Origin: an uncultured Chloroflexia bacterium
GTDB taxonomy: Bacteria > Chloroflexota > Limnocylindria > Limnocylindrales > CSP1-4
Assembly (NCBI GenBank): GCA_963696045.1
Contig: CAVOIR010000009.1
Location: 15,427-79,426 of the forward strand
DNA length: 64,000 nt
Direction: 5' to 3'
Every line of letters starts with the position of its first letter. Within the stretch, counting starts at the first letter, position 1. A program made the translations under genes and the position numbers. Below the pieces are notes generated by a model, which was not told where the DNA came from, searched no databases, and worked only from the letters and a program-made list of their open reading frames with translations. This document shows, piece after piece, positions 43,728 to 64,000 of this stretch.

Positions 43728-44030
43728 CACTCGACTCGCTCCGCCTCGCGATGGTATCGGGCGTCGCAGCCGGCGCTACTTCTGGCATTCATTCGCCCAC
43801 GGAATGCGACGCAGCGGGACACAGCCAGGAGCGAGGTCGATCCCAAGCGCCGGCGTCAGATCGAGGTCATCTTGAGCGTGGACACGCTCAGTCTCCTTGG
43901 CACAGACACCAGGGACGCCTTCCGGCCCGCTCGAAGCCTGCCTCCCATTGCGTCCTCGAATGAGCGGCAAGAACGCGAACGCCGTGAGACGTGCTTTCCG
44001 CCGAACGCGCACCAATTCACGGGCGTATGC

Positions 44031-44041
44031 TCGATAATCGA
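44031..44041. promoter_or_regulatory. Palindrome TCGATAATCGA, copy 1 (candidate operator upstream of the SDR-MBL unit)
   Basis: Perfect 5+1+5 palindrome. Context is gcGTATGCTCGATAATCGATgattg. A TATGCT -10-like hexamer ends at the first base of the palindrome. Lies about 80 nt upstream of ATG 44122. Confidence 0.55.
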
Positions 44042-44121
44042 TGATTGACTGAGCTGGTCGAACGTCCTGCATGCGCGGTGCCGTCGTCGTGCGGCGGACT
44101 CGCTCCGAAGGAGGTGACTCG

Positions 44122-44906
44122 ATGGGCCAGCTGGACAGGTTCAGGCTCGACGATCGCGTCGTCTTCATCGGCGGTGGCGGGGGCGCCATCGGGTCGGCCA
44201 TGGCCGTCGCCTTCGCCGAAGCGGGCGCCAGGGTCGCCGTCGTGGACGTCGCCCAGGAATCGGTCGATTCCACCGCGACGCGGGTGTCCGAGGCCGGCGG
44301 CGAGTGCCTGCCCATGGCGGGTGACATGACCGACCGGGCTGCAGCCGACGAGGTCGTGCGCCAGACCGTCGAGCGGTTCGGCCGGCTCGACATCGTCGTC
44401 AACGCCATCGGCGGGGGGCGGGCAAGGTCCTCTTCGACGCGCAGGAGTACCCCGACGACGCCTGGCAGTGGATCTACGACATCAATGTCCGCTGCACGCT
44501 CGTGCCCACGCAGGCGGCCGTCAAGGCGATGATCGCGGCCGGCACGCGGGGCAAGGTCCTGAACATCAGCTCGGTGCGCGCGGCACTCGGCATCCGGGCC
44601 GGCTACTCGGCCTACGTCGCGGCGAAGGGCGCCATCAGCTCGCTCACCCGTCAGTGGGCCACCGAATGGGCGCCCCACGGGATCAACGTGAACGCCATCT
44701 CGCCGACCTTCGTCGACACGCCGCAGGTGGCCATGCTCCTGGGCGACCCGGCATTCAAGAAGGCTCTCACCGACCGCATCCCGTTGGGGCGCGTGGGCGG
44801 CACCGATGACCTCGTGGGCGCGGCCATCTTCCTCTGTTCGGATGCGGCAGCCTTCATCACCGGCCAGATCCTGGGCATCGATGGCGGCCTGACCGCGACC
44901 CAGTAG
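44122..44906 (+). CDS. Short-chain dehydrogenase/reductase (SDR; one frame change near 44425)
   Basis: SD GAAGGAGGTG, ATG 44122 (in ORF 44071..44532): [42 protein letters not shown]...RLDIVVNAIGGG. ORF 44502..44906: GKVLNISSVRAALGIRAGYSAYVAAKGAISSLTRQWATEWAPHGINVNAISPTFVDTP (Y-x-x-x-K)...FITGQILGIDGGLTATQ*. Confidence 0.9.
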
Positions 44907-44944
44907 CCAGCACGACCGGGAGGGATTCGATCGTGGAACCGCCC

Positions 44945-45815
44945 ATGGAACAGGTCACCGCGAACGTCTATGCGAACACGCGCATCCGCGGCTGCAACCC
45001 GAGCTACGTCGTCACGAGCGACGGCGTCGTGGTCATCGACACGCCGCAGCTGCCGACCCGCGCCGTGGCCATGCGTGCCGAGGCCGAGGCGCACGGGCCG
45101 ATCCGATACCTCATCAACACCGAGCACCACGTCGACCACATCTTCGGGAACTACTGGTTCAAGGGCGCTGGCACGGTCGTCAACCACCAGGGGCTGTACG
45201 ACAACTTCATGGTCGTGGCGCCCATCCTCGACCCGTTCGCCTATGCGCGAGGAGGCCATCCCGACCGACGACCCCGATGGCGCTGCCCTCTTCCCCGACC
45301 GTGACGAGTACTACAGGGACCCCAACAAGGGCCGCATCGTCTTCACCGGCGACCTCGTGCTGCGGGTCGGCGAGACGACCTTCCGCTGCCTGCACACGCC
45401 GGGCCACACGCCGGGGCAGCTGGCCGTGCACGTGCCCGAGGAAGGCGTCGTGTTCACGGGCGACACGATCTTCAACCAGTGCCAGACCTGGCTGATGACC
45501 TCGGACATCGACGGTTGGCTGACGGCCCTCGAGCGCATCCGGACGCTCGACTTCGAGCACCTCGTTCCAGGGCATGGTCCGGTCACCGATCGCTCGGCTC
45601 TCGATGACCAGCGCGCCATCCTGCTCGAGTGGCGCGCCGGCGTCGCTGCCGCTGTGGCCGAGGGGCTGTCGCGCGAGGAGACGCAGGCCCGCGTCAACTT
45701 CAAGGACCGCTTCCCGGTCGACATCGGTCAGGAGTACATGATGGACTACATCATGTCCCACAACGCCGGCGCCCTCTGGGACAGGATGACCGCGCAGCCG
45801 CCCCGCGACGGCTGA
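44945..45815 (+). CDS. MBL-fold metallo-hydrolase (one frame change near 45245)
   Basis: ORF 44933..45304: MEQVTANVYANTRIRGCNPSYVVTSDGVVVIDTPQLPTRAVAMRAEAEAHGPIRYLINTEHHVDHIFGNYWF (HxHxDH). ORF 44970..45815: ...FRCLHTPGHTPGQLAVHVPEEGVVFTGDTIFNQCQTWLMTSDIDGWLTALERIRTLDFEHLVPGHGPV... Confidence 0.85.
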
Positions 45816-45823
45816 TCCGCGGG

Positions 45824-47960
45824 TCAGGCGCGGCCGGCGGCGACCTCGTCCTCGCGGGTCCGACCGGCCAGGCGGATGAGGTCCTCGTGGAGCTCGAACC
45901 AGACGCCGTGGTAGCTGTCGACGCGCGGTGAGGCGATGAAGCGTCCGTCACCGCTGGCGGCCGCCTCGGCCGCGGCCGACAGGCGCCGGGCGTAGCTCTG
46001 CAGGCGGGGCAGGCCCGCCACGAGCGGCGCGATCCAGGCATCGGCATCGGCGTGCAGGGCGGCGAGACGGGCCAGCACATCCGCGTCGTAGGCGGCGTCG
46101 GTGTGATCGTTCAGCACCTGCCGGCCGTCCATCTCTCGCATCTGCCAGGCGGTGACGATGACCTTCATGCGCCCGTCGAGCGCGATGAACCCGTCGAGCG
46201 CGGCATCGGCCGCGGCCGGCCCCATGGCCTGTCGGTCGGCCGCCAGCATCTCCGCGGCCAGAGACTGGCCCGTCGCGGTCAGGCTGAACATGCCGCCGCT
46301 GGCACTGGCGATGCCGGTCCGCCGCAAGCGCGTCGAGGAGCCGGGCAGCCTCCTCGGGCGCGACCCCGAGGGCCGGGGCCAGCAGGTCCGGGGTCACGTA
46401 GCCCTTGATGGTGAGCGCGCGGATGGCGTCGTCACGCGTGGCCTCGCCTGCCCCGGGCGCGGTCGGCTCGTCGACCATCGTGCGCACCTCCCCTCCCCCG
46501 ATGTCGATCCCCAGCTCGGCCGCCCAGGCGAGCAGCACGGCGGCCTCCGGCACGGTCGAGTGGGTCGCAGCGACGACGCCGGCGTAGACCTCGCCGCTGT
46601 GCCCATCGATGCTGAGCACGTCGCCCTCACGCCAGCTGCCCCCGCCGATCGATCACCCGTGCCGTCGGTCACCTGGACCTCAGAGGCTCCGACGACCGCC
46701 GGGATGTCCCAGCCCCGCGCCACGACCGCGGCATGGCAGGCGAGTCCGCCGGTCGACGTCAGGATGCCGACCGAGCGGGCCATCCCGTGGACGTCGTCGG
46801 GAGAGGTCTCCGTGCGCACGAGCAGCACCTCGGTCCCCGCATCGGCCATGCGCACGGCAGCCTCCGGCGTCGTGGCGATCGCCCCCGATACGAGGCCCGG
46901 TGACGCTCCCAGACCGCGGGCCACCACGGGGACGTCGATCCGCGCCTCACGCATGACTGAGGGCGGGTCGGCCAGGATGTCGCGCACGCGCTCGACGGCC
47001 TCGGCACGCGAAAGCGGGAAGTCGGGATCCTCCGCCATCTCGATGGCCATCCGCAGGGCGGACTGGGCGCCACGCTTGGCGATGCGGTTCTGGAGGAGCC
47101 ACAGCCGCCCCTCCTCGATGGTGAACTCGATGTCGCAGGCGTCGCGATGATGGCGCTCGAGCAGGCGCGCGACGCTCCGCAGCTCGGCCGCCACTCGCGG
47201 CAGCCGGTCATCGAGGACGGCGATCGGCTCTGTCACGTGGGTGCCCGCCACGACGTCCTCGCCCTGGGCGCCGAACAGGACGTCGCCGTAGAGGACGTCC
47301 TCCCCGGTCGCCGGGTCGCGCGTGAAGAGCACGCCCGTGGCCGAGTCCGGTCCGCGGTTGCCGAAGACCATGGCCTGCACGACGACGGCCGTCCCGAGGT
47401 CCGCGGAGATGCCTTCTCGCTCCCGGTAGGCCTTCGCCCGATCGCTGTCCCAGCTCCGGAAGACGGCCTCGATCGCGTGGCGAAGCTGAAGCCATGGGTC
47501 CTCCGGCACGTACGTGTCACCGACGACGTCGCGGAACATCGTCACGAGGCGGGCGCGGCAGGCCGTGGCGAAGGCAGCATCCCCGGCGGCGCGCGCGAGC
47601 CCCGGCGTCGCCGCGTCGGTCAGCCCGAGGTTGAGGATCGTGTCGAGCATCCCGGGCATGGACACGGGCGCCCCGGAGCGCACGCTCACGAGCAAGGGGT
47701 CAGCGGGCGCACCGAATCGACGGCCCGTCCGGCCTCGACCTCGGCCATCCGCTCGCGCAGCTCCTCGTCCATTCCGGCCGGCCAACCCAGTACTCGCGTA
47801 GGCACGACACGCTTCGGTGGTGATGACGAATCCCGGGGGGCACGGGCAGCCCGAGGTCGCGGGCCATGACCACGAGGTTGGCGCCCTTGCCACCGAGCAG
47901 CGCCGTCAGGGCCTCCGGGTCGAGCGGGGGCGGCGCGTCGAACGGGTAGGTCCAGGGCAT
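45824..47960 (-). CDS. Truncated pyruvate-phosphate-dikinase-like protein: ATP-grasp plus phospho-His swivel domain plus a novel ~230-aa C-terminal region, with no PEP/pyruvate TIM barrel (frame changes)
   Basis: ORF 47700..47960: MPWTYPFDAPPPLDPEALTALLGGKGANLVVMARDLGLPVPPG. ORF 46394..47893: FVITTEACRAY...PLLVSVRSGAPVSMPGMLDTILNLGL...VVVQAMVFGN...GVLFTRDPATGE...GAQGEDVVAG...DIEFTIEEGRLWLLQNR...VLLVRTETSPDDVHGMARSVGILTSTGGLACHAAVVARGWDIPAVVG. ORFs 45948..46619 and 45824..46327 give the C-terminal extension, ending ...SYHGVWFELHEDLIRLAGRTREDEVAAGRA*. Confidence 0.8.
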
Positions 47961-47975: not shown

Positions 47976-49035
47976 TCAGGGCTTCACGATGATCTTGATG
48001 GCGCCACTTTCGGGGTCGCGGAACGTGGCCAGCGCCGTCGCGAAGTCCTCGAGCGGGAACTCGTGCGTCATCACCTCGCGGAGCCGCATCCGCCCGTCGG
48101 CCACGAGGGGCAGGACGCGGCGCATCTCGCCGGCCGACGCGCGCGAGCCGGCCAGCTCGAGCTCGTAGAGCACGAGGTCACGGACGTCGATCTCGACGCC
48201 CTCCGTGGGGATGCCCACCGCGGCGACGCGTCCGCCCTTGCGAAGCGCGGCGAGCGCCCATCGCAGGGCAGCGGGCACGCCGGCCGCCTCGATGACGCGA
48301 TCCACCCCGAGGCCGCCCGTCATCTCGCGAAGGGTGGCCGCCGCGTCGCCGACGGTCGCATCGATCGTCTCGTAGCCCATCTCCCGGGCCTTCTGGCGAC
48401 GGGAGGCGCGACGCTCGACGACGATGACCCGGCCAGCGCCTCGGATCCGCGCGGCCTCCGCGCTGAGCAGGCCGATGGCCCCGCCGCCCATGATGGCGAC
48501 CGTGTCGCCGGGCTGGATCCGGGCACGGTTCGCGACGTGGAGAGCGATCGACGCTGGGTCGACGACCGCGCCGACCTCGAAGCTCAACGCCTCGGGCAGC
48601 CGGGAAGACGGACTTCACGCCGTGGACGACGTACTCGGCGTCGGCACCCTGGTAGTTGTGGCCGTACTGGCGGTGCAGCGCCATGACGCCGTAGTTCTCG
48701 CAGAGGTTGTAGCGGCCCTCGACGCATGGCTGGCAGATGCCGCAGGCGTCGTGGCTGGTGCCCGCCACCCGGTCGCCGACCTGCCAGCCGGCCTTCTCGG
48801 CGCCAGGGCCAAGGCGCACGATCTCGCCCGCCCACTCATGTCCGGGGATGATCGGGAAGGCCGGCGGCCAGAAGCCCGGGTAGTCGCCGGCGATGAGGTG
48901 CGAGTCCGTGCCGCAGATCGACACCGCGCGGACCCGGCAGAGGACCTCCATGGGCCCGGGCTCGGGGACGGGCACCGTCTGGACCTCGAATCGCTCCGGC
49001 TCGAGGACCACGAGGGCCCGCATCGTCTCGGTCAC
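47976..49035 (-). CDS. Zinc-dependent medium-chain alcohol/polyol dehydrogenase (one frame change near 48590)
   Basis: ORF 48178..49035: MTETMRALVVLEPERFEVQTVPVPEPGPMEVLCRVRAVSICGTDSHLIAGDYP...PIIPGHEWAGEIV...DACGICQPCVEGRYNLC (structural Zn). ORF 47976..48587: ...VAIMGGGAIGLLSAEAARIRGAGRVIVVE (Rossmann)...IKIIVKP*. Confidence 0.9.
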
Positions 49036-49074: not shown

Positions 49075-49965
49075 CTAGATGGCGGCCACGGGATCGACCA
49101 TCGACGCGGTCGCGCCCCGGATCTTGAGGGGCAGGGCGATGAAGGCGAACTCGTAGACCTTCTCACGGGCGAGCTCCTCGAGGTCGAGGCTCTCCATGAG
49201 GTAGATGCCGTGGTCGATGAGGAGGTGCTTGTGCACCGGCTGCGGGTTGCCCTCGGGACCCGGGTCGGGCGCCGGCTGGACCTCGTATGTCTCGGTGTCG
49301 GTGCCCGGTGGCGACGACGCCTCGGCGCAGGAGCCAATCCGCCGCAGAGAGGTCGGGCCCAGCCGTCTTGTTGGCCGCCATCCGCTCGGCGTCGGGCCAC
49401 AGGCTCATGTACCCGGTCCGGATGAGGACGACGTCCCACGGCCGACCTCGACGCCCTGGCTCCGCGCGATGTCCTCGAGCTCGGCGGCGCCCACGGCCTC
49501 GCCACGCCCGAGATGGGGAACGCCGCGGTGGCCGGGCACGTCGAGGAGCACACCGCGCGTGAACATCGGGGGCATGTGGGAGGCGTCGCCGAAGACCGGT
49601 CCGTGGTCGGTGAGGTGCTCGTCCGCGCGGCCGCCGCCGTACCAGTGCATGTCCTCCCCCACCGTCATGTGCGCGAGGGCGTCGATGTGGGCCCCCGAGT
49701 GCGAGGTGCACATGAGGTACTCGGCCATGTAGCCCAGGCCGATGTCGTTGATGGGTCCCCAGGGCTGCCGCTTGCCGGCGCGGATGCCGCGCGGGCTCAC
49801 GGCGTTGAGCACCTGGAAGGGCGGATGTCCGGGGAAGAGCGGCATGCCCGTGAATCGGGCCGCGGCGAGCGAGATGAGGCGGCCCTGCCGGATCATCGCG
49901 GCCGCCTTGACGACCTGCTCGGCGGGCATCGCTCCGATGGGGCCGACCTCCGGGTGTGCGCTCAC
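49075..49965 (-). CDS. Cyclase-family protein (PF04199-type; kynurenine formamidase / isatin hydrolase-like; two frame changes)
   Basis: ORF 49405..49965: MSAHPEVGPIGAMPAEQVVKAAAMIRQGRLISLAAARFTGMPLFPGHPPF...YLMCTSHSGAHIDALAHMTVGEDMHWYGG (H-x-G-x-H-x-D-x-x-x-H). ORF 49163..50041: WDVVLIRTGYMSLWP... Hand-read tail: ...VHKHLLIDHGIYLMESLDLEELAREKVYEFAFIALPLKIRGATASMVDPVAAI* (TAG at 49075). Confidence 0.75.
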
Positions 49966-52267
49966 GTTCGGACCTCCTCTGTCGCGTGGGCCTCATCGGC
50001 CTTCCGGTCCCTGGCGGCTCCCGGGCCGCCGCGGGCCTCACGCAGCGCGCGCCAGACCCGCTCGGGCGTCAGGGGCAGGTCCCGGATGACGACCCCGGTG
50101 GCCTCGGTCACGGCGGCACCGACGGCGGCCGCGACGCACAGGAGCGCGCCCTCGCTCATGCCCTTCGCGCCGTAAGGCCCAGGACCGTCGCCGTTCTCGA
50201 CGATCTCGCTGACCATCTCACCGGGCAGGTCCATGCTCGTGGGGATGCGGTAATCGATGGCGCCCAGGTTGCGGATGCGACCCTGGTCATCGAAGTGGTA
50301 CTGCTCCATGAGCGTGTGCCCCAGGCCCTGGATGGCGGCGCCCTCGTCCTGCATCCGCACCTGCAGCGGGTTGAGGGCCTTGCCCACGTCGGAAACCATG
50401 ACGTGGCGCACGACCGTGACGTCGCCTGTCTCCTCGTCGACCTCGGCCTCGATCGCCGTGCAGTCGAACTCGAAGAAGGCCGGCGCTCCGCCGAGCGGAT
50501 GGTCTGGCTCGGCGTCCTTGCGCGCCTCGCCCAGGCCGACCAGCTCACCCCCCAGACGGCCGAGCCCATCCGCGAGCACCTCGCGGATGGGGACCACGCG
50601 GTCGGCTACGCGCACGACGCCCTCGCTCACGACGACGTCGGTCTCCGGGACGCCGAAGGACTGCGCAGGCCATGGTCCGGAGGCGGTCCTGGATCTGGCG
50701 GCAGGCGGCCAGCACCGCGTTGCCCATCAGCACGGTCGAGCGGCTCGCCGAGGTCTGCTGGTCGTAGGGCACGATGGCCGTGTCGCCCATGACGACGGTG
50801 ACCCAGTCGAGCGACGCACCGAGCTCCTGGCCTGCGATCTGGGCCAGGACCGTGCGCGCGCCCTGGCCCATGTCCGAGGTTCCCGCGTAGACGACGACGC
50901 TGCCGTCCGCGAGGAGCCGGACCGTGGAGTACGAGAGCCCCGTCGTGGGACCCGACTTCAGGCCTACGGCGATGCCCCGGCCGCGCCCGGCGGCAGGGGC
51001 GTGTCCCAGCCGATGAGCTCGGCGGCCCGTCGCACGCTCTGCTCCCAGTCCCCGTCGGCCGGGGTGTCCCAGGGGATGAAGGCCTCACCCTTGCGAGCGA
51101 GGTTGCGCAGGCGGATCTCGAGCCGGTCGATGCCGAGGCGCCGGGCGCCCTCGTCGAGGTTCGACTCCACGGCCCAGTTCACCTGCGGGTTGCCGAAGCC
51201 GCGGAAGGCTGTCGAGGGCACGGTATGGGAGAGCACGCCACGGGCCACGATCCGCGCAGCCGGCATGCGATACGGTCCAGCGCCGACATAGCTGCCCTTG
51301 CTGACCACGCGGTCAGCGATGTCGACATAGGCCCCGATGAGGTAGTCGGCCGCGATGTCCTGGAACGCGATGGAGCCGTCGCCCAGGAGCCCCGTGCGCA
51401 CGCGCACCTCGGCCGCCGCCCGTCGCACGGCCTGGAACGACTCCTCGAGGGACAGGACGAGGCGGACGGGGCGCTGCGCCCGCAGGGCGAGGAACGCGAC
51501 CAGCGGCTCGTACTTGGCATGCTGCTTCCCGCCGAATGCGCCGCCCGGGTCGGGCGCCAGGACGCGGACCTTCGAGAGCGGCAGACCGAGCACCCGCGAG
51601 AGGATGCGCTGCAGCCAGTAGGGGTGCTGGATGGCGCTCCAGACGGCGATGCCGTCGCCTTCCGGTGTGGCCATGAAGGCGTGCGGCTCGATGGCGAAGT
51701 GGGTCACCATCGGGAACGTCCAGGTCCCCTCCACCACGACATCGGCCGGGGTCGTCTCGACGTCGCCCCAGCCCACGCGATGCTCGCGCAGGACGTTCGT
51801 GGCCGCCAGCGGGTCCCCCGGTCGAAGCGCCGGGTCCTGGACGAGCGGTGCGTCTGGCGCGAGGGCCGCCGCGAGGGTCACCACGGCGGGAAGCTCCTCG
51901 TAGCGCACGTCCACGAGCGCCGCCGCCGCCGCCGCGGCATCCTCCGTTTCGGCCGCTACCACCGCCACGGGCTCGCCGTGGTAGTGGGTCTCCCCGACGG
52001 CGAGGACGGGGCGATCGTCGAACTGTGGTCCGAAGCGGGGCACCGGCTGGGGCAGGTCTGCGGCCGCATCACGACCCGGACGCCCGGCACGGCCAGGGCG
52101 GCCGCCGTGTCGATGGAGACGATGCGGGCGCGGGCCACGGGCAGGGTCACGAGTCGCGCGTGCAGCTCGTCCGGCAGGTGGATGTCCGCGACGTAGCGCT
52201 GTCGCCCGGTGACGCGGGCGTCGCCGCCGACGCGGACGAGCGGATCCCCGACCCGCGCGCCGCTCAC
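49962..52267 (-). CDS. Molybdopterin-binding large subunit of a xanthine-dehydrogenase-family hydroxylase (frame changes)
   Basis: ORF 51956..52267: MSGARVGDPLVRVGGDARVTGRQRYVADIHLPDELHARLV. ORF 50964..52466: ...HYHGEPVAVVAAETEDAA...TFPMVTHFAIEPHAFMATPEGDGIAVWSAIQHP...VLAPDPGGAFGGKQ...TAFRGFGNPQVNWAVESNLD. ORF 50545..50871: MGQGARTVLAQIAGQELG. ORF 49962..50630: ...VSDVGKALNPLQVRMQDEGAAIQGLGHTLME...GPGPYGAKGMSEGAL. 4-nt overlaps with both neighbouring genes. Confidence 0.85.
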
Positions 52268-57083: not shown

Positions 57084-57099
57084 TTAGCGATGACGATAC

Positions 57100-57459: not shown

Positions 57460-57510
57460 TTGTGGGCCCGACGGCGCGGGGTATGGAGGGAGGCGCCAGG
57501 AGGATACGAG

Positions 57511-57889
57511 GTGCTCGGATGTTCAAGCGGGTCGCCCGGGACGAAGCGAGTCCTCCTGCCCCTGCCCGGTCGTGACTGGCGCACCTACATCGGCCCGCAC
57601 AACACGCCGACCGAGCGCGTCTCGATGGGGGTCTCGGTGTTCCCCGCCGGCTCGCGCCCCGAGGGGCACGTCCACGAGACGCAGGAGGAGACCATCTACT
57701 GCGCTCGCCGGGCGCGGACGCATCGTGACGCCCGAGGGCAGCGCCGAGATCGAGGCCGGGGTCACGGTCTGGGTCGGCGTGGGCACCCCGCATGCCACCG
57801 AGTCGGACGGCCCGGAGCCACTCGAGCTGGTGTGCTTCTTCTCGCCTCCCGTCGTGCCCGGCTCGTACGAGAAGGGCCCACGACCATGA
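57511..57889 (+). CDS. Cupin-domain protein (one frame change near 57705)
   Basis: SD AGGAGGA, GTG 57511 (in ORF 57313..58773): VLGCSSGSPGTKRVLLPLPGRDWRTYIGPHNTPTERVSMGVSVFPAGSRPEGHVHETQEETIYC (G-x5-H-x-H-x3-E motif). Tail of ORF 57107..57889: LAGRGRIVTPEGSAEIEAGVTVWVGVGTPHATESDGPEPLELVCFFSPP. ATGA overlap with the next gene. Confidence 0.7.
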
Positions 57890-58773
57890 CGACGGCAGCC
57901 GCGGCAGGGGGCGCGACGGCCGAGGAGATCGTCCGGCTCGAGGACATGGCGCGGCGCATCCGCGTGGCCGTCGTCCGCACGGTCATGCGCGTCCGGGTCG
58001 GCCATGTGGGTGGTCCCCTCTCGGCGGCCGACATCCTGGCCGCCCTCTACGGTCGCATCCTGCGCATCCGCCCGGACGAGCCCGACTGGCCGGACCGCGA
58101 CCGCTTCATCCTCTCCAAGGGTCACTCATCGCTCGGCCAGTACGCCGCCATGGCGCTGGCCGGCTACTTCCCCGTGGCCGAGCTCGACACGTTCGACCAG
58201 AAGGGCTCGCGCCTGCAGGGCCATCCGGACATGAACAAGCTGCCCGGCATCGACATCTCGACAGGGTCGCTGGGCATGGGTCTCTCGGCCGGCCTGGGCT
58301 TCGCTCTCGGCGCCCGGCACCTGGGCCTCGACGTGCTCACGTACGTCCTCCTCGGCGACGGCGAGTGCCAGGAGGGCCAGGTCTGGGAGGCTGCCCACGT
58401 GGCGCCCCGCCACGGCGCCGACAACCTCATCGCCATCGTCGACCACAACAAGCTGCAGCAGTTCGGGTGGCGCGGCGAGGATGCCCACCATCGCCTGCCT
58501 CCGGAGGACCCAGGGGCGCTGGCCGCCCGCTTCGCGGCCTTCGGGTGGCGCGTGCTGGAGGTCGACGGCCACGACATGGCCGCCCTCCTCGAGACGCTCG
58601 AGGCGGCACGCCGGCGGGAGGGCCTCCCGGTGGCCGTCATCGCGCATACCACGAAGGGCCGCGGGGTCTCGTTCATGGAAGGTGACTTCGTCTGGCACAT
58701 GGGCGTGCCCACGGACGAGCAGTTCGCCCAGGCCATGGCCGAGCTCGGGGAGCCCACGGAGAACACGCCGTGA
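57886..58773 (+). CDS. Transketolase, N-terminal (thiamine-diphosphate-binding) subunit of a split enzyme (uninterrupted)
   Basis: In ORF 57313..58773 from ATG 57886: MTTAAAAGGATAEEIVRLEDMARRIRVAVVRTVMRVRVGHVGGPLSAADILAALYG...DRFILSKGHSSLGQYAAMALAGY...GHPDMNKLPGIDISTGSLGMGLSAGLGFALG...VLLGDGECQEGQVWEAAHVAPRHGADNLIAIVDHN (ThDP motif). Confidence 0.9.
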   Translation: MTTAAAAGGATAEEIVRLEDMARRIRVAVVRTVMRVRVGHVGGPLSAADILAALYGRILRIRPDEPDWPDRDRFILSKGHSSLGQYAAMALAGYFPVAELDTFDQKGSRLQGHPDMNKLPGIDISTGSLGMGLSAGLGFALGARHLGLDVLTYVLLGDGECQEGQVWEAAHVAPRHGADNLIAIVDHNKLQQFGWRGEDAHHRLPPEDPGALAARFAAFGWRVLEVDGHDMAALLETLEAARRREGLPVAVIAHTTKGRGVSFMEGDFVWHMGVPTDEQFAQAMAELGEPTENTP

Positions 58774-59735
58774 GCCTGCCCAAGGGCCGCGCGCTCCGCG
58801 ACGTCTTTGGTGACGTCGTGACCGAGCTCGCGGCGACTGACCGACGCATCGTCATGCTCGACGGCGACCTGGGCAGCTCGACGCGCGGCCAGGTCTTCGA
58901 GAACGCCTACCCCGAGCGCTACTTCCAGATGGGCATCGCCGAGCAGAACATGCTGGGCGTCGCGGCCGGCATGGCGAAGATGGGCTGCATCCCGTTCATC
59001 AGCACCTTCGTGGCCTTCGCGCTCCATCGGCCGCTCGACCAGATCCGCGTCCTCATCGCCCAGACCGGGGCCAACGTCAAGATCACGGCCGGCTACACGG
59101 GCCTCTTCACGGGCCGGGCCGGCAAGACGCACCAGGTCGTCGACGACATCTCCATCGCCCGCGCCATGCCGGGCCTGGTCGTCATCTCTCCTGCCGACGA
59201 GGTCGAGACGCGGGAGGTCCTGACCTGGTCGGTCGCGTACGAGGGGCCCGTCTTCATCCGGCTCGTCCGGGACGTGACCCAGACCCTCTTCGCGCCCGGG
59301 CACCGCTTCCAGTTCGGCAAGGTGAAGGTCGTCCGCGAGGGCGCCGATATCACGCTCATCAGCACCGGGACGCAGACGCCGCGCGTCGTGGATGCCGCCG
59401 AGATCCTGGCGGCCTCCGGCATCGAAGCCCACGTCGTCCACGTGCCCACACTGAAGCCCATCGACGTGGCCGGCCTCGTGGCCGCGGCTGAACGCACCGG
59501 CCGGGTGGTCACGGTCGAGGAGCACAGCGTGATCGGCGGCCTGGGGGGTGCCGTGGCCGAGACCCTCTCCGAGCATCGCCCGACGCGCGTCGACCGCATC
59601 GGCATCCAGGACCACTACACGGAGTCGGCCAGCGACGACGAGCTGCTCGACATGTACTGCCTCTCCGCCGAGCGAGTGGCCCAACGCGTGCGCCGGCTCC
59701 TCGCCAGCGAGGGGCCCACCGGCTCCTGCACGTGA
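58770..59735 (+). CDS. Transketolase, C-terminal (pyrimidine-binding) subunit (uninterrupted)
   Basis: ORF 58770..59735: MSLPKGRALRDVFGDVVTELAATDRRIVMLDGDLGSSTRGQVFENAYPERYFQMGIAEQNMLGVAAGMAKMGCIPFISTFVAFALHRPLDQIR...MPGLVVISPADEVETREVLTW...VVHVPTLKPIDVAGLVAAAERTGRVVTVEEHSVIGGLG. GTGA overlap with the N-terminal subunit gene. Confidence 0.9.
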   Translation: MSLPKGRALRDVFGDVVTELAATDRRIVMLDGDLGSSTRGQVFENAYPERYFQMGIAEQNMLGVAAGMAKMGCIPFISTFVAFALHRPLDQIRVLIAQTGANVKITAGYTGLFTGRAGKTHQVVDDISIARAMPGLVVISPADEVETREVLTWSVAYEGPVFIRLVRDVTQTLFAPGHRFQFGKVKVVREGADITLISTGTQTPRVVDAAEILAASGIEAHVVHVPTLKPIDVAGLVAAAERTGRVVTVEEHSVIGGLGGAVAETLSEHRPTRVDRIGIQDHYTESASDDELLDMYCLSAERVAQRVRRLLASEGPTGSCT

Positions 59736-59823
59736 GCCGACACTCGCGCATGAGCCTCGTCCCGACGTGATCGAGACTCCTGGTGCACACGGCCGCCAGC
59801 GTTCGGGACTCGGGTGGCCGCTG

Positions 59824-60696
59824 ATGGATCTCGTCGCCGAGTCGGTCGTCATCGGCCTCGTGGAGCAGGCTCCGCTGGTCCTCGCGGCGATCGGGTTCGC
59901 GCTCATCTACCGCCTGACCGGCCTCATCAATGTCGCTTACGCCGAGACACTGACGCTGGGTGCCTACTTCGCCATCTGGCTGAGCCAGACCTTCGGCCTC
60001 GACTTCTACGCGGTCCTCGTCCCCACCGCGATCCTCTCCGGACTCCTGTCAGTGGCCACGTACCTCCTCATCTTCCGGCCCGCCAAGCAGCGCGACGTGG
60101 GCGTCCTGGAGATGATCATCATCTCCTTCGGCCTCTCGATCTTCCTGCGCCACGGACTCCAGTTCATCTTCGGCTATCCGACCATCTTCTTTGACGTGCC
60201 CCCGCCCGACACCGTCCTGGTGCTCGGCGTCGGGGTGACGTCCTTCCGGCTGCTCGCCCTGGTCACCGTCGCCCTCCTCGCCCTGGTGCTCTATCTCTTC
60301 ATCCAGCGTTCGGACTATGGACTCCAGATCCGGGCCCTCGCCAGCGACGAGCAGCTGGCCCAGGTGAGCGGCATCCGGCCCCTCGTCGTGACCGTGATGA
60401 TCTGGTTCATCGCCGGTGTCGCCGGCGGCCTCGCTGGGGCCTTCCTGGGGGTCGGCTCGTCGGTCTCGCCACTGCTCGGCTGGCGCCAGTTCCTCTTCAT
60501 CCTGTTGGTGGTGCTCGTCGGTAGTCGATGGGGGATCGGCGGTGTCATCGCGGTGGGGGTAGCCGCCGCCATCGCGCTCACCGCCATGGCGCTCACGTTC
60601 GACCAGGTCCTCTACGCCCAGCTCGTCCTCATCGTCGCCTTCGTCATCCTGCTGAAGTGGCGCGGCCGGCGGCTGGCCGAGATGGCCAAGGTCTAG
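59824..60696 (+). CDS. Branched-chain-amino-acid-type (HAAT family) ABC permease, LivH-like (uninterrupted)
   Basis: In ORF 59548..60696 from ATG 59824: MDLVAESVVIGLVEQAPLVLAAIGFALIYRLTGLINVAYAETLTLGAYFAIWLSQTFGLDFY...GLQIRALASDEQLAQVSGIRP... Confidence 0.85.
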   Translation: MDLVAESVVIGLVEQAPLVLAAIGFALIYRLTGLINVAYAETLTLGAYFAIWLSQTFGLDFYAVLVPTAILSGLLSVATYLLIFRPAKQRDVGVLEMIIISFGLSIFLRHGLQFIFGYPTIFFDVPPPDTVLVLGVGVTSFRLLALVTVALLALVLYLFIQRSDYGLQIRALASDEQLAQVSGIRPLVVTVMIWFIAGVAGGLAGAFLGVGSSVSPLLGWRQFLFILLVVLVGSRWGIGGVIAVGVAAAIALTAMALTFDQVLYAQLVLIVAFVILLKWRGRRLAEMAKV

Positions 60697-60700
60697 CGCG

Positions 60701-61648
60701 ATGCTCGACTGGCTCGACAGCTTCCTGATCACCGGCCTCTTCGGCGTGGCCATGATCGTCGGTCTCGCCCTGCTCCTGCACCTCCAGCTGGGACTCACCC
60801 GGATCGCCAACTTCGGGGTCGTCGGATTCTGGGGCCTCGGCTACTACGCCTTCGGGGTGCTCTACCTCCAGGTCGACTGGCCGTTCGGGGACCCCTGGCA
60901 GTTCCTCGCATGTGCTGCCGGGGCCATGGCTGTCGCCGGCCTCGCGGGCCTGGTGGTGGGGTGGCTCATCTCCGACCTCGACACCGATGGCGTGCTCGTG
61001 GTCACGCTGGGCTTCGCCGCCATCGTCCAGATCCTGGCGACCACCGAGGCCGAGTGGACGGGTGGGTCGCGTGGCCTGGGTGGGCTCCGTATCCCGTTCG
61101 ACGTGGGCACGGTCAAGGAGGACGAGTTCGCCTGGCTGCTGGTCCTGACCGCGGTGGTCGTCGTCATCTTCCTCTACGCCCGCCAGGTCCACCGCTCGCC
61201 GTACGGGCGCCTGCTCATCGCGATGGGCGGCAACGAAGCCCTGGCCCGCAGCCTTGGCAAGTCGACGTACCGCACCAAGCTGGGGCTGTTCGTCGTCACC
61301 TCGGCGGGGATGGGGCTGCTCGGCGCGATGTTCGGGTCGATGGAACGATCCCTCGATGTCGGCAGGATCGGCGTCGACGTGACCCTGGCCGCGATGGTGG
61401 GCCTGGTCCTGGGCGGCACCGCGCGTGTGTGGGGCGCGGTCGTCGGTGTCTTCCTCTCCGTTGGCCTGTTCGACATCGTGGTGCGGTCCTACCTGCCTCT
61501 CCCTCGCGAGTGGTACACGCAGGCGATCCCCGTGCTCAGGGAAGTCATCTTCGGTGCGACCCTCATCGTGGTCCTCATGTTCCGACCACTCGGCGTCCTC
61601 GGCGACATGCGGCGCGACAAGCTGATGAGGAAGCTCCATGGCAAGTGA
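60701..61648 (+). CDS. HAAT-family ABC permease, LivM-like (uninterrupted)
   Basis: ORF 60701..61648: MLDWLDSFLITGLFGVAMIVGLALLLHLQLGLTRIANFGVVGFWGLGYYAFG...TGGSRGLGGLRIPF...YGRLLIAMGGNEALARSLGKSTYRTKLGLFVVTSAGMGLLGAMF... Confidence 0.85.
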   Translation: MLDWLDSFLITGLFGVAMIVGLALLLHLQLGLTRIANFGVVGFWGLGYYAFGVLYLQVDWPFGDPWQFLACAAGAMAVAGLAGLVVGWLISDLDTDGVLVVTLGFAAIVQILATTEAEWTGGSRGLGGLRIPFDVGTVKEDEFAWLLVLTAVVVVIFLYARQVHRSPYGRLLIAMGGNEALARSLGKSTYRTKLGLFVVTSAGMGLLGAMFGSMERSLDVGRIGVDVTLAAMVGLVLGGTARVWGAVVGVFLSVGLFDIVVRSYLPLPREWYTQAIPVLREVIFGATLIVVLMFRPLGVLGDMRRDKLMRKLHGK

Positions 61649-62432
61649 CGTCACGGCCCCGACCGAGACGGCACGTCCGCGGGTCCACGTCCGCGGTGTC
61701 GTCAAGTCCTTCTCGGGGCGGGTCGTCGTCGACGTCGACGACCTCGTCCTTGGCGAGCGGCCGATCGAAGGTCTCATCGGCCCCAACGGCGCCGGCAAGA
61801 CGACCTTGATGCGGATGATCATGCACTCGATCCCGCTCGACCGTGGCCGGATCTCGCTCCTCGCGCCCGAGCGGTCCGAGGTGACGCTGTCGGATCTGCC
61901 GGCCGACCGGATGGCTCGGCACGGCGTGGTGAAGTCCAACCAGGTGATCATGGACTTCGACAAGCTCACCATCTGGGACTCACTCCTGCTGTCGGTCACA
62001 GGGGCGCACCACGAGCAGCCGCACCGCGTCTTCAGCGAGGCCACCGTCTTCAGGCGCCACGAAGAGGAGATGCGGCACTACCTTGACCTCTTCGGATTCG
62101 CCGACCCCGCGTCGTTCGCCTTGTCAGCCGGCGAGAAGAAGCTGCTCGACATCGTTCGCTGCCTGCTCCTGAAGCCCCGCTTCCTCCTGCTCGACGAGCC
62201 GACGGCCGGGTTACCCGACGACACCACCGAGAAGGTCATGGACGTGGTCCGGCAGCTGGCCGCCTCCGGCACGTCGGTGGTCATCGTCGAGCACGACCTC
62301 AACGTCATCTGGGGCCTTTGCGAGCAGGTCCACTTCATGGCCGAGGGCAAGGTCATCCTGCGCGGCGACCCGCAGGCCATCCGCGAGCACCGTGTGGTCG
62401 TCGAGAAGTACCTGGGTGAAGGCCATGTCTGA
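61638..62432 (+). CDS. HAAT-family ABC ATP-binding protein, LivG-like (uninterrupted)
   Basis: ORF 61638..62432: ...VRGVVKSFSGRVVVDVDDLVLGERPIEGLIGPNGAGKTTLMRMI (Walker A)...LSAGEKKLLDIVRCLLLKPRFLLLDEPTAGL (signature/Walker B)...VVIVEHDLNVIWGLCEQVHFMAEGKVILRGDP. Confidence 0.9.
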   Translation: MASDVTAPTETARPRVHVRGVVKSFSGRVVVDVDDLVLGERPIEGLIGPNGAGKTTLMRMIMHSIPLDRGRISLLAPERSEVTLSDLPADRMARHGVVKSNQVIMDFDKLTIWDSLLLSVTGAHHEQPHRVFSEATVFRRHEEEMRHYLDLFGFADPASFALSAGEKKLLDIVRCLLLKPRFLLLDEPTAGLPDDTTEKVMDVVRQLAASGTSVVIVEHDLNVIWGLCEQVHFMAEGKVILRGDPQAIREHRVVVEKYLGEGHV

Positions 62433-63142
62433 GGCCACGACCGAGGCCGTCATCGAGGTCACCGGCCTGCGCAGCGGCTACCACGGGGTGCTGGTGCTCA
62501 AGGGCCTGGACTTCTCCCTGGGCAAGGAGGTCTTCGCCGTCCTCGGTGCCAACGGGGCCGGCAAGACGACGCTCCTGGCGACGATGGCTCGCTTGCTCCC
62601 ACTGATGGGCGGGGCCATCCGCTTCCAGGGTGTCGACGTCTCGCATCTCCCGCCGTACGAGACCGCCGCACGGGGCATCGCCTACGTCCCACAGGAGCAG
62701 GGGGTCTTCCCCTACCTCACCGTCCTCGAGAACCTGCGGGTCGGCGGCATGATCGGCTCGCGCCCTCGGCAGGAGCGCATGGACGAGGTGTTCGACCTGT
62801 TCCCGGACCTCAAGACCATGCTGAGAGCAGCCGGCGGGGACGCTCAGCGGTGGAGAGTCGCGCATGGTCGCCTGCGCGCGGGCACTCATGCAGGATCCGA
62901 AGGTCCTGCTCCTCGACGAACCCACGGCTGGCCTCTCGCCGCTCTACGTCGACCTCTTCATGGACAAGATCAGGGAGATGCACGAGACCCGAGGGGTCAC
63001 CATCGTGCTCGCCGAACAGAACGCGACGAAGGCCCTGCAAGTGGCCGACCGGGTGATGGTGCTCAGTCTCGGCGAGGCACACGCGGTGATGGACGCCGCC
63101 GATGTCACGACGCAGCAGCTGAAGGAGGGCTACAGGATCTGA
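62425..63142 (+). CDS. HAAT-family ABC ATP-binding protein, LivF-like (one frame change near 62825)
   Basis: In ORF 62392..63366 from ATG 62425: MSEATTEAVIEVTGLRSGYHGVLVLKGLDFSLGKEVFAVLGANGAGKTTLLATMARLL...IAYVPQEQGVFPYLTVLENL. ORF 62864..63142: MVACARALMQDPKVLLLDEPTAGLSPLYVDLFMDKIREMHETRGVTIVLAEQNATKALQVADRVMVLSLGE. Confidence 0.85.
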
Positions 63143-63187
63143 CGACACGTCGACCATGGACCAGAGCACGACAGGAGGAGAACGCTC

Positions 63188-64000
63188 ATGAGGATAGGAA
63201 CACCAAGCGGGTCGAGCGGCGGTGGCCATCGCCGCAGTCGACCCTCCTCGTCACCGCCCTCGGCAGGGGCCGCCACGGCGCAGGACGAGACGGAGCCGGT
63301 GCAGGTCTGCGAGCTGGCCTACTACACCGGTTCGTTCGCGGCGTACGGGCCGTCGCTCACCAATGACGTGCGCTTCGCCGTCGAGGACGTCGTCAACCAG
63401 GATCCGCCACTCGGCCGGACGTGGGAGCTCATCTCCGAGGACATCGGCGACAGCTTCGAGGGTGACGCCGCCAGGAAGTGCATCGAGCAGCACGGTGCCG
63501 AGATCCTGGTGAGCATCGCTCACCAGTATCGGACCTACCGTGACTACATGATGGAGACGTGGGCCGAGAACGACGCGCCGCTCGGGCCGTCGGTCCACGG
63601 TGGGGCCATCCCGGGCAACCTGGGTGGCAAGGCAGCCGAGCCCATCTTCCGGGCCCAGGGCCTGGATGAGGCGCTGGGCACCTTCGGCAGCCTCTACGCC
63701 GCTTCGATCGGCGCCCAGGATGTCGTCATCTTCGCCACCGAGGTCGAGGGCTTCCAGCTGGCGGCCGACGCCAACCAGGAGGCCGCCGAGGCCCTCGGTC
63801 TCAACGTGCTGGAGCGCATCGACGCCCCGGCTGACCAGGCCAGCTACCGGGCCGATGCCGAGAGGATCGCGAACCTGGACCCGGACGCCGTCCTGGTCCA
63901 GGCCGGATCGACCGAGTCCGCGACCCTCATCAAGGCGGCGGCCGAGGCCGGCCTCTCGCTCAACTGGATCGGCGAGACCGGGTGGGCCGAGGCCGAGTTC
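63188..64000 (+). CDS. Periplasmic-binding-protein type I (LivK-like) ABC substrate-binding protein; 3' end beyond the window; N-terminal signal region frame-shifted
   Basis: Hand translation (edge ORF, not in track). SD ACAGGAGGAGAA, ATG 63188: MRIGT..., with a neighbouring frame giving STLLVTALG (lipoprotein-like). Then ...ETEPVQVCELAYYTGSFAAYGPSLTNDVRFAVEDVVNQDPPLGRTWELISEDIGDSFEGDAARKCIEQHGAEILV...DVVIFATEVEGFQLAADANQEAAEALGLNVLERIDAPADQASYRADAERIANLDPDAVLVQAGSTESATLIKAAAEAGL. Confidence 0.7.
   Translation, partial: MRIGTPSGSSGGGHRRSRPSSSPPSAGAATAQDETEPVQVCELAYYTGSFAAYGPSLTNDVRFAVEDVVNQDPPLGRTWELISEDIGDSFEGDAARKCIEQHGAEILVSIAHQYRTYRDYMMETWAENDAPLGPSVHGGAIPGNLGGKAAEPIFRAQGLDEALGTFGSLYAASIGAQDVVIFATEVEGFQLAADANQEAAEALGLNVLERIDAPADQASYRADAERIANLDPDAVLVQAGSTESATLIKAAAEAGLSLNWIGETGWAEAEF

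Follow-up and report, generated by a model that had tools for sequence, protein, structure and literature searches.

Why should a molybdenum (Mo) hydroxylase need a phosphotransfer system? This open biochemical question, which cultured carriers of the genes make testable, is raised by a gene cluster of about 20 kb at one end of a 64,000-nucleotide stretch of DNA (64 kb; hereafter the window) from an uncultured bacterium of the Chloroflexota. There, two dikinase-like proteins and a three-subunit Mo hydroxylase are encoded beside a split transketolase (TK) and an ABC importer. Our analysis confirmed that the cluster is real and co-regulated and that its host is a soil member of the Chloroflexota of the Limnocylindria type. 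We give about an even chance to the reading that it forms one regulon, controlled by a regulator of the GntR/FCD type, that serves to take up and degrade a ring-hydroxylated aromatic or N-heteroaromatic compound. Judged by its sequence, the core belongs to a known kind, catabolism begun by a two-component dikinase; the novel parts are a winged-helix partner resembling the kinase VadK, an orphan P-loop family and a remodelled transketolase.

The window has a G+C content of 72%, and its open reading frame (ORF) lists are flooded by spurious frames. We therefore used a frame plot of third-position G+C (GC3), stitched its high-GC3 segments into gene models and scanned the translations with Pfam and NCBIfam. 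The plot showed an unbroken coding signal over about 44.1-64.0 kb, with frame switches within genes, and yielded 19 gene models, all of which had been listed at the same positions in a first-pass annotation of this DNA. Pfam agreed with the family proposed there for 18 of the 19; for the remaining protein, g3, the label 'HprK-like' holds only as a suggestion at the level of the fold. The models form a minus-strand operon, g1-g9, that spans 57057 down to 45824, a plus-strand operon from about 57433 to 64000 and beyond, with cupin, split transketolase and HAAT importer genes, and a convergent pair at 44122-45815 that encodes a short-chain dehydrogenase/reductase (SDR) and a metallo-beta-lactamase-fold (MBL) hydrolase. 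The nine genes of the first operon are as follows.

55285-57057, minus strand: g1, predicted dikinase H-component, 590 aa; a clean ORF with PF00391 and PF27448
54549-55355, minus strand: g2, GntR/FCD regulator (Pfam GntR and FCD)
53646-54534, minus strand: g3, orphan P-loop protein, 295 aa; blank in Pfam and NCBIfam; frame switches at about 54339, 54194 and 53788
52755-53626, minus strand: g4, FAD (CoxM-type) subunit, 288 aa (FAD_binding_5 and CO_deh_flav_C); frame switch at about 53550
52264-52758, minus strand: g5, 2x[2Fe-2S] small subunit (Fer2 and Fer2_2)
49962-52267, minus strand: g6, molybdopterin large subunit, 768 aa (Ald_Xan_dh_C/MoCoBD_1/MoCoBD_2); frame switches at about 52070, 50987 and 50667
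49075-49965, minus strand: g7, metal hydrolase of the Cyclase family PF04199, 296 aa (Pfam); frame switches at about 49435 and 49305
47976-49035, minus strand: g8, Zn-dependent medium-chain alcohol dehydrogenase (ADH; ADH_N and ADH_zinc_N); frame switch at about 48603
45824-47960, minus strand: g9, VadK-like protein, 709 aa (PPDK_N and PEP-utilizers); five frame switches

The spacers of 14, 19, 39 and 15 nt were reproduced, as were the 4-nt ATGA/GTGA overlaps at g4/g5, g5/g6, g6/g7, cupin/TK N half and TK N half/TK C half. The left boundary drawn in the first-pass annotation is also right, because the neighbour beyond it is an unrelated Lhr-type helicase (DEAD, Helicase_C, WH_Lhr, DEAD_assoc; 39361-43525, minus strand), which lies directly upstream of the island.

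If the genes work together, they should also have stayed together, a check that the first-pass annotation had proposed. We compared the 19 window proteins by tblastn with 80 related loci and counted the presence of each gene in those 44 whose 10-kb flanks were complete. Relatives of g1 occur in at least 592 species-level genomes, under the names Chloroflexota, Candidatus Limnocylindria/Limnocylindrales and Dormibacterota, with a median g1 identity across species of 79%. An actinomycete source, to which the G+C content of 72% had pointed, was rejected because the relatives belong to the Chloroflexota. The neighbours proved strongly co-conserved: g1, g2, g4, g5, g6 and g9 were found in all 44 full-flank loci and g3 in 43, and the core of g1, g3, g4, g5, g6 and g9 was complete in 43. 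The cyclase gene g7 was present in 39 and the ADH gene g8 in 37, cupin and TK genes in 33-36, the transporter in 18-20 and the SDR and MBL genes in 11-13. Across loci, g7 co-varies with g8 and TK. All five loci that lack g7 and g8 also lack TK, which argues that cyclase, ADH, cupin and TK act as one module; SDR and MBL are present in four of these five. The operon is intact in a contig labelled Binatia. In a rearranged locus from a Dormibacteria metagenome-assembled genome (MAG; L077), g3 and g4 have relocated as a pair and left g5 and g6 behind, a hint that the P-loop protein is functionally linked to the flavoprotein subunit.

Related loci also carry accessory genes, namely a transaldolase (39 of 81), a UPF0261 gene (30 of 81), a PEP_hydrolase-like TIM barrel (23), DUF1097 (21), an aldehyde dehydrogenase like methylmalonate-semialdehyde dehydrogenase (MMSDH-like ALDH; 20) and a tyrosine-phosphatase-like Y_phosphatase3 gene (6), none of which was found in the 64-kb window. 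In L012 (4883-5740) and five other loci, the Y_phosphatase3 gene, which belongs to a tyrosine/aryl-phosphate phosphatase family, lies inside the regulon region, with DUF1097 and a GntR paralog beside it. The related MAGs from soil and fresh water are mostly named as Limnocylindria-type Chloroflexota, which are essentially uncultured, and the regulon is one of the best-conserved accessory clusters of this group.

As the first-pass annotation had noted, the control regions of all three units share a palindrome. There are exactly three copies of the 13-mer CTCGATAATCGAT in the 64 kb (44030, 57072 and 57448), all in intergenic DNA, upstream of the SDR gene, g1 and the cupin gene.

57072-57084, unstranded: operator-like 13-mer, 15 nt upstream of the g1 start codon, beside its GGAGG
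57448-57460, unstranded: second exact copy, upstream of the cupin-TK-transporter operon
44030-44042, unstranded: third exact copy, about 80 nt upstream of the SDR start codon

Its palindromic core is TCGAT-A-ATCGA; for this 11-nt core, with one mismatch allowed, chance predicts 0.30 occurrences, and in 100 shuffles the observed count was never reached. In related loci, TCGAT-N-ATCGA was found in 69 of 81, upstream of the orthologs of the cupin gene (35), g1 (28), the first permease gene LivH (19), the ADH gene (7) and the SDR gene (6), and also between the accessory transaldolase and UPF0261 genes. This distribution is the phylogenetic footprint of what we predict to be a single regulon. The regulator that binds the shared palindrome is presumably g2, which has the GntR winged helix-turn-helix and FCD domains. 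Orthologs of g2 align from residue ~30, and its true start probably lies near 55265.

Several further features of these sites were seen. After the g1 operator there is a degenerate overlapping copy at 57079-57091, ATCGCTAATCGAT on the minus strand, and the g1 site can also be read as three TCGAT-like units with 7-nt spacing (TCGATAA TCGATTA GCGAT), a direct-repeat reading that fits the other two operator sites as well. In the related loci inspected, copies of the palindrome lie beside UPF0261; the divergent gap between transaldolase and UPF0261 holds two of them, TCGATCATCGA and TCGATTATCGA, at a distance of about 70-90 bp (for example L001, 7739 and 7831; L032, 8516 and 8606), which suggests two operators for a divergent promoter. 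In the window itself, the 88-nt spacer between TK and transporter genes (59736-59823) has no palindrome, and 19 related loci have a palindrome-bearing transporter promoter; in the window genome, the importer genes have become part of the TK operon.

What kind of system does this regulon encode? Two-component small-molecule dikinases such as HpeHI, CreHI and PpsAB have been described, and the characterised members phosphorylate phenolic hydroxyls (PMC12167813); the first-pass annotation, which knew of no precedent for the dikinase module, was mistaken on that point. In these systems, an H-component of ~70 kDa joins an RPH-like substrate-binding region to a swivel His in the motif T/S-x-x-G-G-x-x-x-H near the C-terminus, without a regulatory Thr at position -2, and an I-component of ~40 kDa consists of an ATP-grasp only (PMC12167813). 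We found the architecture and the histidine motif of an H-component in g1, which has an RPH-type substrate-binding region (PF27448 Rph_4th, precomputed) and a C-terminal PF00391 swivel domain, with the catalytic His536 in TNAGDLVAH, 54 residues from the C-terminus. In this motif the second Gly is replaced by Asp, and position -2 is Val, so that there is no regulatory Thr. In NCBIfam, the first matches of g1 were ~600-aa PRK08296 'hypothetical protein' models, aligned over its full length, followed by RedH, PigC and rifampin phosphotransferase, each aligned in its C-terminal two thirds; the RPH structure 5fbs was matched at E 2e-21. As genuine comparison clusters we used the pps-ppc cluster of an Azoarcus plasmid and the acv/hpe-type cluster of a Rhizobium plasmid. 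Identity to the genuine PpsA was 24.6% over residues 23-578, and the acv/hpe-type proteins matched g1 in its C-terminal third only. Thus g1 forms a distant, separate clade of the PpsA architecture, to which substrate and specificity are not transferable by orthology.

The candidate partner of g1 is g9. No short ATP-grasp protein, of the kind of a separate ~40-kDa, ATP-grasp-only I-component of PEP-synthase type, was found in the window, where g9 is the only ATP-grasp. It combines the ATP-grasp of a pyruvate, phosphate dikinase (PPDK) with a swivel domain of its own (His410, in GGLACH; ortholog consensus GGLASH), and Pfam found no phosphoenolpyruvate (PEP)/pyruvate TIM barrel in it. Because a PEP-binding domain is missing, the PEP-dependent phosphorylation proposed in the first-pass annotation is unlikely. 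The match of g9 to PpsB is weak (28% over 196 aa). Among NCBIfam models it scored 487 bits with TIGR01828 and 480 bits, above the cut-off of 456, with NF004531/PRK05878, which we take to be the family of Rv1127c (VadK). The earlier description of g9 as a 'truncated PPDK' is correct in that the barrel is absent, but in the barrel's place stands a conserved C-terminal domain of ~200 aa, present in all the ~710-aa orthologs: residues ~508-706 were modelled as a three-helix and beta-hairpin winged helix (topology 508-559) followed by a helical bundle (AF2 model, pLDDT 81), with a weak PF25213 match. The presence of a swivel His in both g1 and g9 suggests His-to-His transfer. Elsewhere, on plasmid pLW3 of Rhodococcus sp. 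LW-XY12 (L086), a 412-aa 'PEP-utilizing enzyme' and a 463-aa truncated 'pyruvate, phosphate dikinase' stand among acyl-CoA dehydrogenases and an AMP-binding protein, in a separate and unrelated cluster; this pairing of a swivel protein with a VadK-like protein means that the g1/g9 type of pair is not unique.

Between these two genes lies g3, whose P-loop motif is GGESNHGKS and whose orthologs are 295-aa 'hypothetical' proteins aligned at 100% coverage. Neither Pfam nor NCBIfam matched it. A profile of 32 orthologs, run against 1.84 billion representatives, drew 189 proteins, mostly fragments, which is too few for the large HprK and PEPCK families to be among them. The AF2 model of g3, of low confidence at pLDDT 61, matched ATP-dependent PEPCK and HPr kinase/phosphorylase (HprK/P) in Foldseek with E values of 5e-4 to 8e-4, probabilities of 0.77-0.99 and TM-scores of 0.2-0.45. 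Its P-loop segment, GESNHGKSMGLIEAGRRGALQVASE, resembles what we take to be the HprK motif, GxSGxGKSxxALxLxxRGHxLVADD. The weak fold match and the likeness of the P-loop motif are thus what remains of the 'HprK-like' label, for which there is no match at the level of sequence, and g3 was rejected as HprK, PEPCK or a member of any named family on the grounds of the blank searches and of a profile that stays within a narrow orphan family. Compared with HPr kinase/phosphorylase, g3 has no Hpr_kinase_N/C domains, gives low TM-scores and has no HPr or phosphotransferase system genes nearby.

The enzyme encoded by g4-g6 is a three-subunit (L/M/S) Mo hydroxylase of the xanthine-dehydrogenase family, with MoCoBD_1/2 and hammerhead, FAD_binding_5 and 2x[2Fe-2S] domains present. 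In g6, we found GAKGMSEG at residue 700, which we take to be the family's catalytic-Glu motif, and GGAFGGK at 242, presumably also a family motif. Among solved large subunits, the closest was HcrA of 4-hydroxybenzoyl-CoA reductase (4-HBCR; 1rm6_A, 327 bits), followed by that of quinoline oxidoreductase, Qor (238), and that of CO dehydrogenase (215). The NCBIfam scores of g6 lie under every equivalog cut-off, including that of 4-HBCR (435 against 994), and the matches include glyceraldehyde dehydrogenase alpha. The FAD subunit of 4-HBCR, HcrB, is marked by an extra [4Fe-4S]-binding insertion; g4, with 288 aa and only 3 Cys, cannot bind this additional cluster. The enzyme therefore shares with HcrABC its L/M/S architecture and differs from it in the extra [4Fe-4S] cluster, and on the score and the missing cluster capacity we rejected 4-HBCR as its identity. 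CO dehydrogenase was likewise rejected: its active-site signatures are CSFR in form I and GAGR in form II, and neither string occurs in g6.

The plus-strand operon and the SDR-MBL pair supply the remaining enzymes and the importer.

57433-57889, plus strand: p1, monocupin, start uncertain (Cupin_2); frame switch at about 57703
57886-58773, plus strand: p2, transketolase N half, binding thiamine diphosphate (ThDP; Transketolase_N)
58770-59735, plus strand: p3, transketolase C half (Transket_pyr and Transketolase_C)
59824-60696 and 60701-61648, plus strand: p4 and p5, HAAT permeases (BPD_transp_2 in each)
61638-62432 and 62425-63142, plus strand: p6 and p7, HAAT ATPases (ABC_tran in each); frame switch at about 62826
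63170-64000, cut by the window end, plus strand: p8, COG0683-type binding protein, N-terminus unclear (Peripla_BP_6)
44122-44906, plus strand: s1, classical SDR (adh_short_C2); frame switch at about 44416
44945-45815, plus strand: s2, metallo-beta-lactamase-fold hydrolase (Lactamase_B), its stop 8 nt from the convergent g9 stop; frame switch at about 45248

The transketolase halves matched the split-chain structures 6yak (p2, 245 bits) and 6yaj (p3, 269 bits). In an alignment with TktA (E. coli numbering), p2 keeps His26/66/100, Asp155, Asn185 and His261, and p2 and p3 together keep all ThDP and catalytic residues, including Glu411 and His473. The substrate channel in p3 is remodelled: the canonical His is Tyr and 'GEDG' is 'GRAG' (His461 and Asp469), whereas the solved split transketolase 6yaj and human transketolase retain H...GEDG. 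In the window and in every ortholog, Glu-Asp has become Arg/Gln/Lys plus Ala/Thr, with no acidic pair, and all orthologs lack the Asp and His that bind sugar hydroxyls. The enzyme thus shares with the split transketolase of Carboxydothermus hydrogenoformans the two-gene N/C split and the ThDP and catalytic residues, and differs in the channel His and GEDG, which the latter retains. Given this non-canonical sugar-substrate channel, the C2 transfer proposed in the first-pass annotation cannot be taken for granted where the donor would be a sugar phosphate.

The other proteins gave family assignments of varying depth. The cyclase-type hydrolase g7 has the motif HSGAHIDALAH, and its sole relative in the PDB is the uncharacterised 5ibz. 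For g8, the best NCBIfam matches, IolM (223 against a cut-off of 450) and Tdh (212 against 380), fell short of their thresholds, as did those of s1, to gluconate and glucose dehydrogenases, and of s2, to a SoxH-related Zn hydrolase. The cupin p1 has a His/His/Glu...His metal motif (GHVHETQEE...PH). The importer has the HAAT composition of two BPD_transp_2 permeases, two ABC ATPases and one Peripla_BP_6 protein; its binding protein, p8, had no informative solved relative and so gives no clue to the ligand. Binding proteins labelled 'branched-chain amino acid' in COG0683 often bind aromatic acids (PMC3223731).

Is the whole assembly peculiar to this lineage, or does a simpler form exist? The best g1 match in cultured organisms, at 45.5% identity, lies on the megaplasmid of Thermomicrobium roseum (L083; NC_011961.1, 59-75 kb). 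That locus encodes an SDR, a VOC protein, a HAAT transporter, a GntR regulator, a cyclase, a DUF4202-like protein, an FAD subunit, an FAH-family hydrolase, an ABM monooxygenase, the g1 homolog, and Mo and Fe-S subunits. The T. roseum UPF0261 and PEP_hydrolase proteins are 69% and 77% identical to their Limnocylindria counterparts, and a short PPDK_N ATP-grasp is 39.9% identical to PpsB. In a published transcriptome, the homologs trd_A0070 and trd_A0076 are expressed, with less than 2-fold change, which is uninformative. A 205-aa T. roseum protein was considered as a cryptic g3, to which it proved unrelated, and as an HD phosphohydrolase, for which we found only a sub-threshold DUF4202 match.

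Seeded with the T. roseum g1 homolog, we collected a sister g1 clade of 79 loci from Thermomicrobia, Ktedonobacteria, Actinomycetota, Bacillota, Alphaproteobacteria and Acidobacteriota. Among these, 72 have the short ATP-grasp, 60-61 the Mo subunits, 64 the cyclase and 64 the GntR regulator, and FAH (39), ABM (42) and the DUF4202-like protein (36) are frequent companions, in the order g1-GntR-cyclase-ATP-grasp-(DUF4202)-FAD-Mo-FeS-FAH-ABM. The partner of g1 is here a plain PpsB-type ATP-grasp without swivel or winged helix, and g3 was not found in these loci. In alphaproteobacterial versions there are also a His_Phos_1 phosphatase, a MocA-like transferase and a separate CoxG/SRPBCC protein; in a Devosia locus, the CoxG/SRPBCC gene adjoins that of the g1 homolog. 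Cultured carriers of the dikinase, Mo hydroxylase and cyclase core include Thermomicrobium, Thermogemmatispora, Bacillus and Chelativorans. From the plain partner in the sister clade, the ancestral function would be that of an ordinary two-component small-molecule dikinase, and the window cluster reads as a lineage-specific elaboration in which g9 replaces the plain ATP-grasp and g3 and the ADH/cupin/TK module have been added. In a Devosia MAG (L139, 16338-18347), a 669-aa protein encoded a few kb downstream of the dikinase/Mo-hydroxylase operon looks like a fused E1 alpha/beta ThDP-dependent dehydrogenase, with a 29% tblastn match to the TK C half; it may be another ThDP enzyme tied to the dikinase/Mo-hydroxylase system.

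Taken together, the dikinase, the Mo hydroxylase and the cyclase, joined in the sister clade by FAH and ABM, point to a ring-hydroxylated aromatic or N-heteroaromatic substrate that is phosphorylated before it is oxidised. In the model we favour, the HAAT-type ABC system would import the compound, and an inducer would free g2 from the TCGAT-N-ATCGA operators. The kinase g9 would take a phosphate from ATP and hand it to g1, which, with its substrate pocket and second swivel His, would phosphorylate a ring hydroxyl. The Mo hydroxylase g4-g6 would then hydroxylate or oxidise the phosphorylated intermediate with water, and Zn-ADH, cyclase-type hydrolase, cupin and the atypical split TK would process the oxidised product or a side chain. 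The SDR and the MBL hydrolase could form an alternative or additional module, and g3 might move phosphate on or off the intermediate, as a kinase or phosphorylase, or regulate the dikinase. Phenolic or aryl-phosphate chemistry is also indicated by the UPF0261 and Y_phosphatase3 genes of related loci, by the alphaproteobacterial His_Phos_1, by the nearest solved relative of g6, which acts on 4-hydroxybenzoyl-CoA, by the aromatic acids that COG0683 binding proteins often take, and by a TK without sugar-binding residues. The first-pass interpretation is supported in part. Its view of a catabolic unit with its own importer agrees with the shared operator, the HAAT importer genes and the co-conservation. 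Of the substrates it offered, an N-heterocycle is viable; a ring-hydroxylated aromatic or N-heteroaromatic compound is more likely than a polyol or an amide.

A bolder version of this model couples the dikinase to the Mo hydroxylase in a single mechanism, in which phosphorylation of the ring hydroxyl would be a prerequisite that activates or anchors the substrate, g3 would recover or remove the phosphoryl group to ADP or Pi, and the split TK would cleave a (hetero)aryl ketol in place of a sugar phosphate. We consider this version quite unlikely. If true, it would amount to an undescribed route of phosphorylation-dependent aromatic hydroxylation and C-C cleavage in abundant soil Chloroflexota, with a simpler form in six phyla.

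Several observations weigh against an aromatic or N-heteroaromatic substrate or against the parts assigned to the proteins. The cluster has no obvious ring-cleavage dioxygenase, the small cupin being the sole candidate, and the UPF0261, transaldolase and tyrosine-phosphatase-like genes are missing from the window. The kinase pair is atypical on both sides: g1 is ~25% identical to PpsA and is matched by HpeH/AcvA-type proteins in its C-terminal third only, and g9 is unlike the canonical ~40-kDa ATP-grasp partner and belongs to a family whose one studied member is regulatory. The model of g3 is of low confidence, and the UPF0261 residues checked against the phenolic kinase MarK are common to the entire family, plant Tm-1 included, which leaves this check with little discriminating power. 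The TCGAT-N-ATCGA operator lacks what we take to be the usual GT...AC core of GntR-family sites. Finally, the TK here and the transaldolase and MMSDH-like ALDH of relatives are typical of sugar and cyclitol metabolism.

This last point leads to the alternative that survives best, a sugar, cyclitol or keto-polyol pathway, which we judge unlikely. Here, Zn-ADH and SDR would oxidise a polyol or carbocycle, the MBL hydrolase or cyclase would open a lactone or cyclic diketone, the cupin would isomerise, the dikinase would phosphorylate, and TK would feed the product to central metabolism, with a transaldolase and an IolA-like semialdehyde dehydrogenase serving in relatives and the Mo enzyme acting as an aldehyde or aldose oxidoreductase. 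All of TK, cupin, Zn-ADH, SDR and MBL are indeed in the window, and the transaldolase and MMSDH-like ALDH genes of relatives stand under the same palindrome. The NCBIfam matches lean the same way, with the scyllo-inosose 3-dehydrogenase IolM best for g8, gluconate and glucose dehydrogenases for the SDR and glyceraldehyde dehydrogenase alpha among those of g6, but these scores are far under the curated cut-offs. Moreover, the TK lacks the Asp and His that would hold sugar hydroxyls, the importer is of the HAAT type and not a sugar ABC system, and the multi-phylum core has neither TK nor transaldolase and carries instead FAH and ABM, as aromatic pathways typically do. Phenolics, moreover, are the substrates of known relatives of both kinase types (PMC12167813, PMC12624787).

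Could the dikinase-like proteins be regulators instead of catabolic enzymes? In this second alternative, the autokinase g9, g1 and g3 would form an ATP-driven phosphorelay that tunes the Mo-hydroxylase pathway in its activity or expression, much as VadK acts on the methylcitrate cycle and HprK/P on carbon catabolite control. We think it quite improbable. In its favour, g9 scores above the cut-off of the VadK family and carries a winged helix, a swivel His is present in both g1 and g9, and g3 combines an HprK/PEPCK-type fold match with a P-loop; VadK itself is a regulatory kinase (PMC13400623). A pure relay would, however, leave without a role the full ~450-aa RPH/PpsA-type substrate-binding region that g1 has kept, and it does not fit the sister clade, with its PpsB-like partner and neither swivel, winged helix nor g3. 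A dedicated GntR regulator and conserved operators are, besides, already there.

The weakest alternative starts from the broken reading frames, of which there are 19 switches within 10 of the 19 genes. Only 3 of the 19 fall at long homopolymers, against a background of 18%, so homopolymer context was dropped as an explanation and the case for errors rests on the orthologs. The stitched models match intact single ORFs of Illumina MAGs end to end, with full-length identities of 60-94%, and the database orthologs of g3 (295 aa) and g9 (~710 aa) are covered at 100%. Because the Illumina orthologs are intact, we read the switches as assembly errors. GC3 stays at 0.85-1.0 on either side of every switch, and with the coding signal kept and the orthologs intact, pseudogenes were ruled out. 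Similar fragmentation is seen in other nanopore-derived MAGs, and the Lhr helicase gene is likewise broken into two frames, so the indel problem is window-wide. That the cluster is a decaying, non-functional remnant, or a set of unrelated genes that are merely adjacent, is thus very hard to credit: the number of switches and their lack of concentration at homopolymers would fit it, but the coding signal, the full-length orthologs, the same breaks in other nanopore MAGs and in the helicase, and the order, operator and content kept across dozens of species all speak against it.

The reading we prefer, a regulon for a ring-hydroxylated aromatic or N-heteroaromatic compound, bears on several lines of work. 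Solving the cluster would link the phenolic two-component dikinases, the VadK-type truncated PPDKs and the UPF0261 kinase MarK, and would give a first function to the orphan P-loop family and to the altered-pocket transketolase subfamily. It could also add enzymes for converting lignin-derived or N-heterocyclic compounds.

How does the cluster compare with systems already known? Literature searches on the gene combination, on Limnocylindria metabolism and on phenylphosphate synthase in Chloroflexi returned nothing relevant, and no paper on the biochemistry of the cluster was found. Like PpsAB (phenol), CreHI (4-cresol) and HpeHI/AcvAB (acetovanillone, 4-hydroxyacetophenone), it has a stand-alone H-component, g1, in a catabolic operon. 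It differs in that the characterised H-components share ~45% identity, against the ~25% of g1 to PpsA, and in that the partner g9 has 709 aa with its own swivel and winged helix. UbiD carboxylase, biotin carboxylase, HAD phosphatase, CoA ligase and cytochrome P450 are not among the 19 window genes; the Cre pathway uses the P450 CreJEF. In the Hpe pathway, the phosphate is later taken off by a phosphatase (PMC9618137), and the published descriptions of the Hpe and MarK/Acv pathways do not match the gene content of the window (PMC9618137, PMC12624787). The cluster thus matches no characterised pathway with which we compared it (Pps and Acv/Hpe). To this extent the first-pass statement that no characterised pathway couples this set of genes stands, since the contents of Pps and Acv/Hpe differ; the dikinase module by itself does have precedent.

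Two single proteins invite a closer comparison. The truncated PPDK of Mycobacterium tuberculosis, Rv1127c (VadK), autophosphorylates its swivel His and regulates the methylcitrate cycle (PMC13400623). g9 shares with it the PPDK-type ATP-grasp and swivel His, the absence of the PEP/pyruvate domain and a score above the NF004531 cut-off. In contrast, the VadK family measures ~490-534 aa with no further domain, whereas g9 adds the ~200-aa winged helix and helical bundle, and VadK is a regulator whereas g9 lies in a catabolic operon beside a PpsA-like partner. MarK, a UPF0261 protein, uses ATP to phosphorylate acetovanillone and other phenolics (PMC12624787). The UPF0261 protein of related loci matches MarK (PDB 9MPY) along its full length at 233 bits and keeps DTK, G195, H219 and H304. 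It is closer to Tm-1 (312 bits), has Ile in place of the ketone-binding H348, and is always paired with the PEP_hydrolase-like TIM barrel. To our knowledge, MarK is the only characterised UPF0261 enzyme.

A lead on the question with which we began is the 3hpd cluster of Ensifer adhaerens HP1. There, the Mo hydroxylase HpdA, which has a separate SRPBCC subunit, reportedly hydroxylates 3-hydroxypyridine, in an activity that is reported to depend on PEP-utilizing and PPDK-like proteins of the cluster, for which no role was given. If this is so, 3hpd would couple a dikinase to a Mo hydroxylase in the same way, would be the closest precedent among characterised systems and would speak for the N-heterocycle named in the first-pass annotation. 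Ensifer was not among the closest 80 loci of the alphaproteobacterial g1 clade. Compared with the 3hpd cluster as reported, the window has no SRPBCC gene and adds g3, the winged helix of g9, ADH, cupin and split TK.

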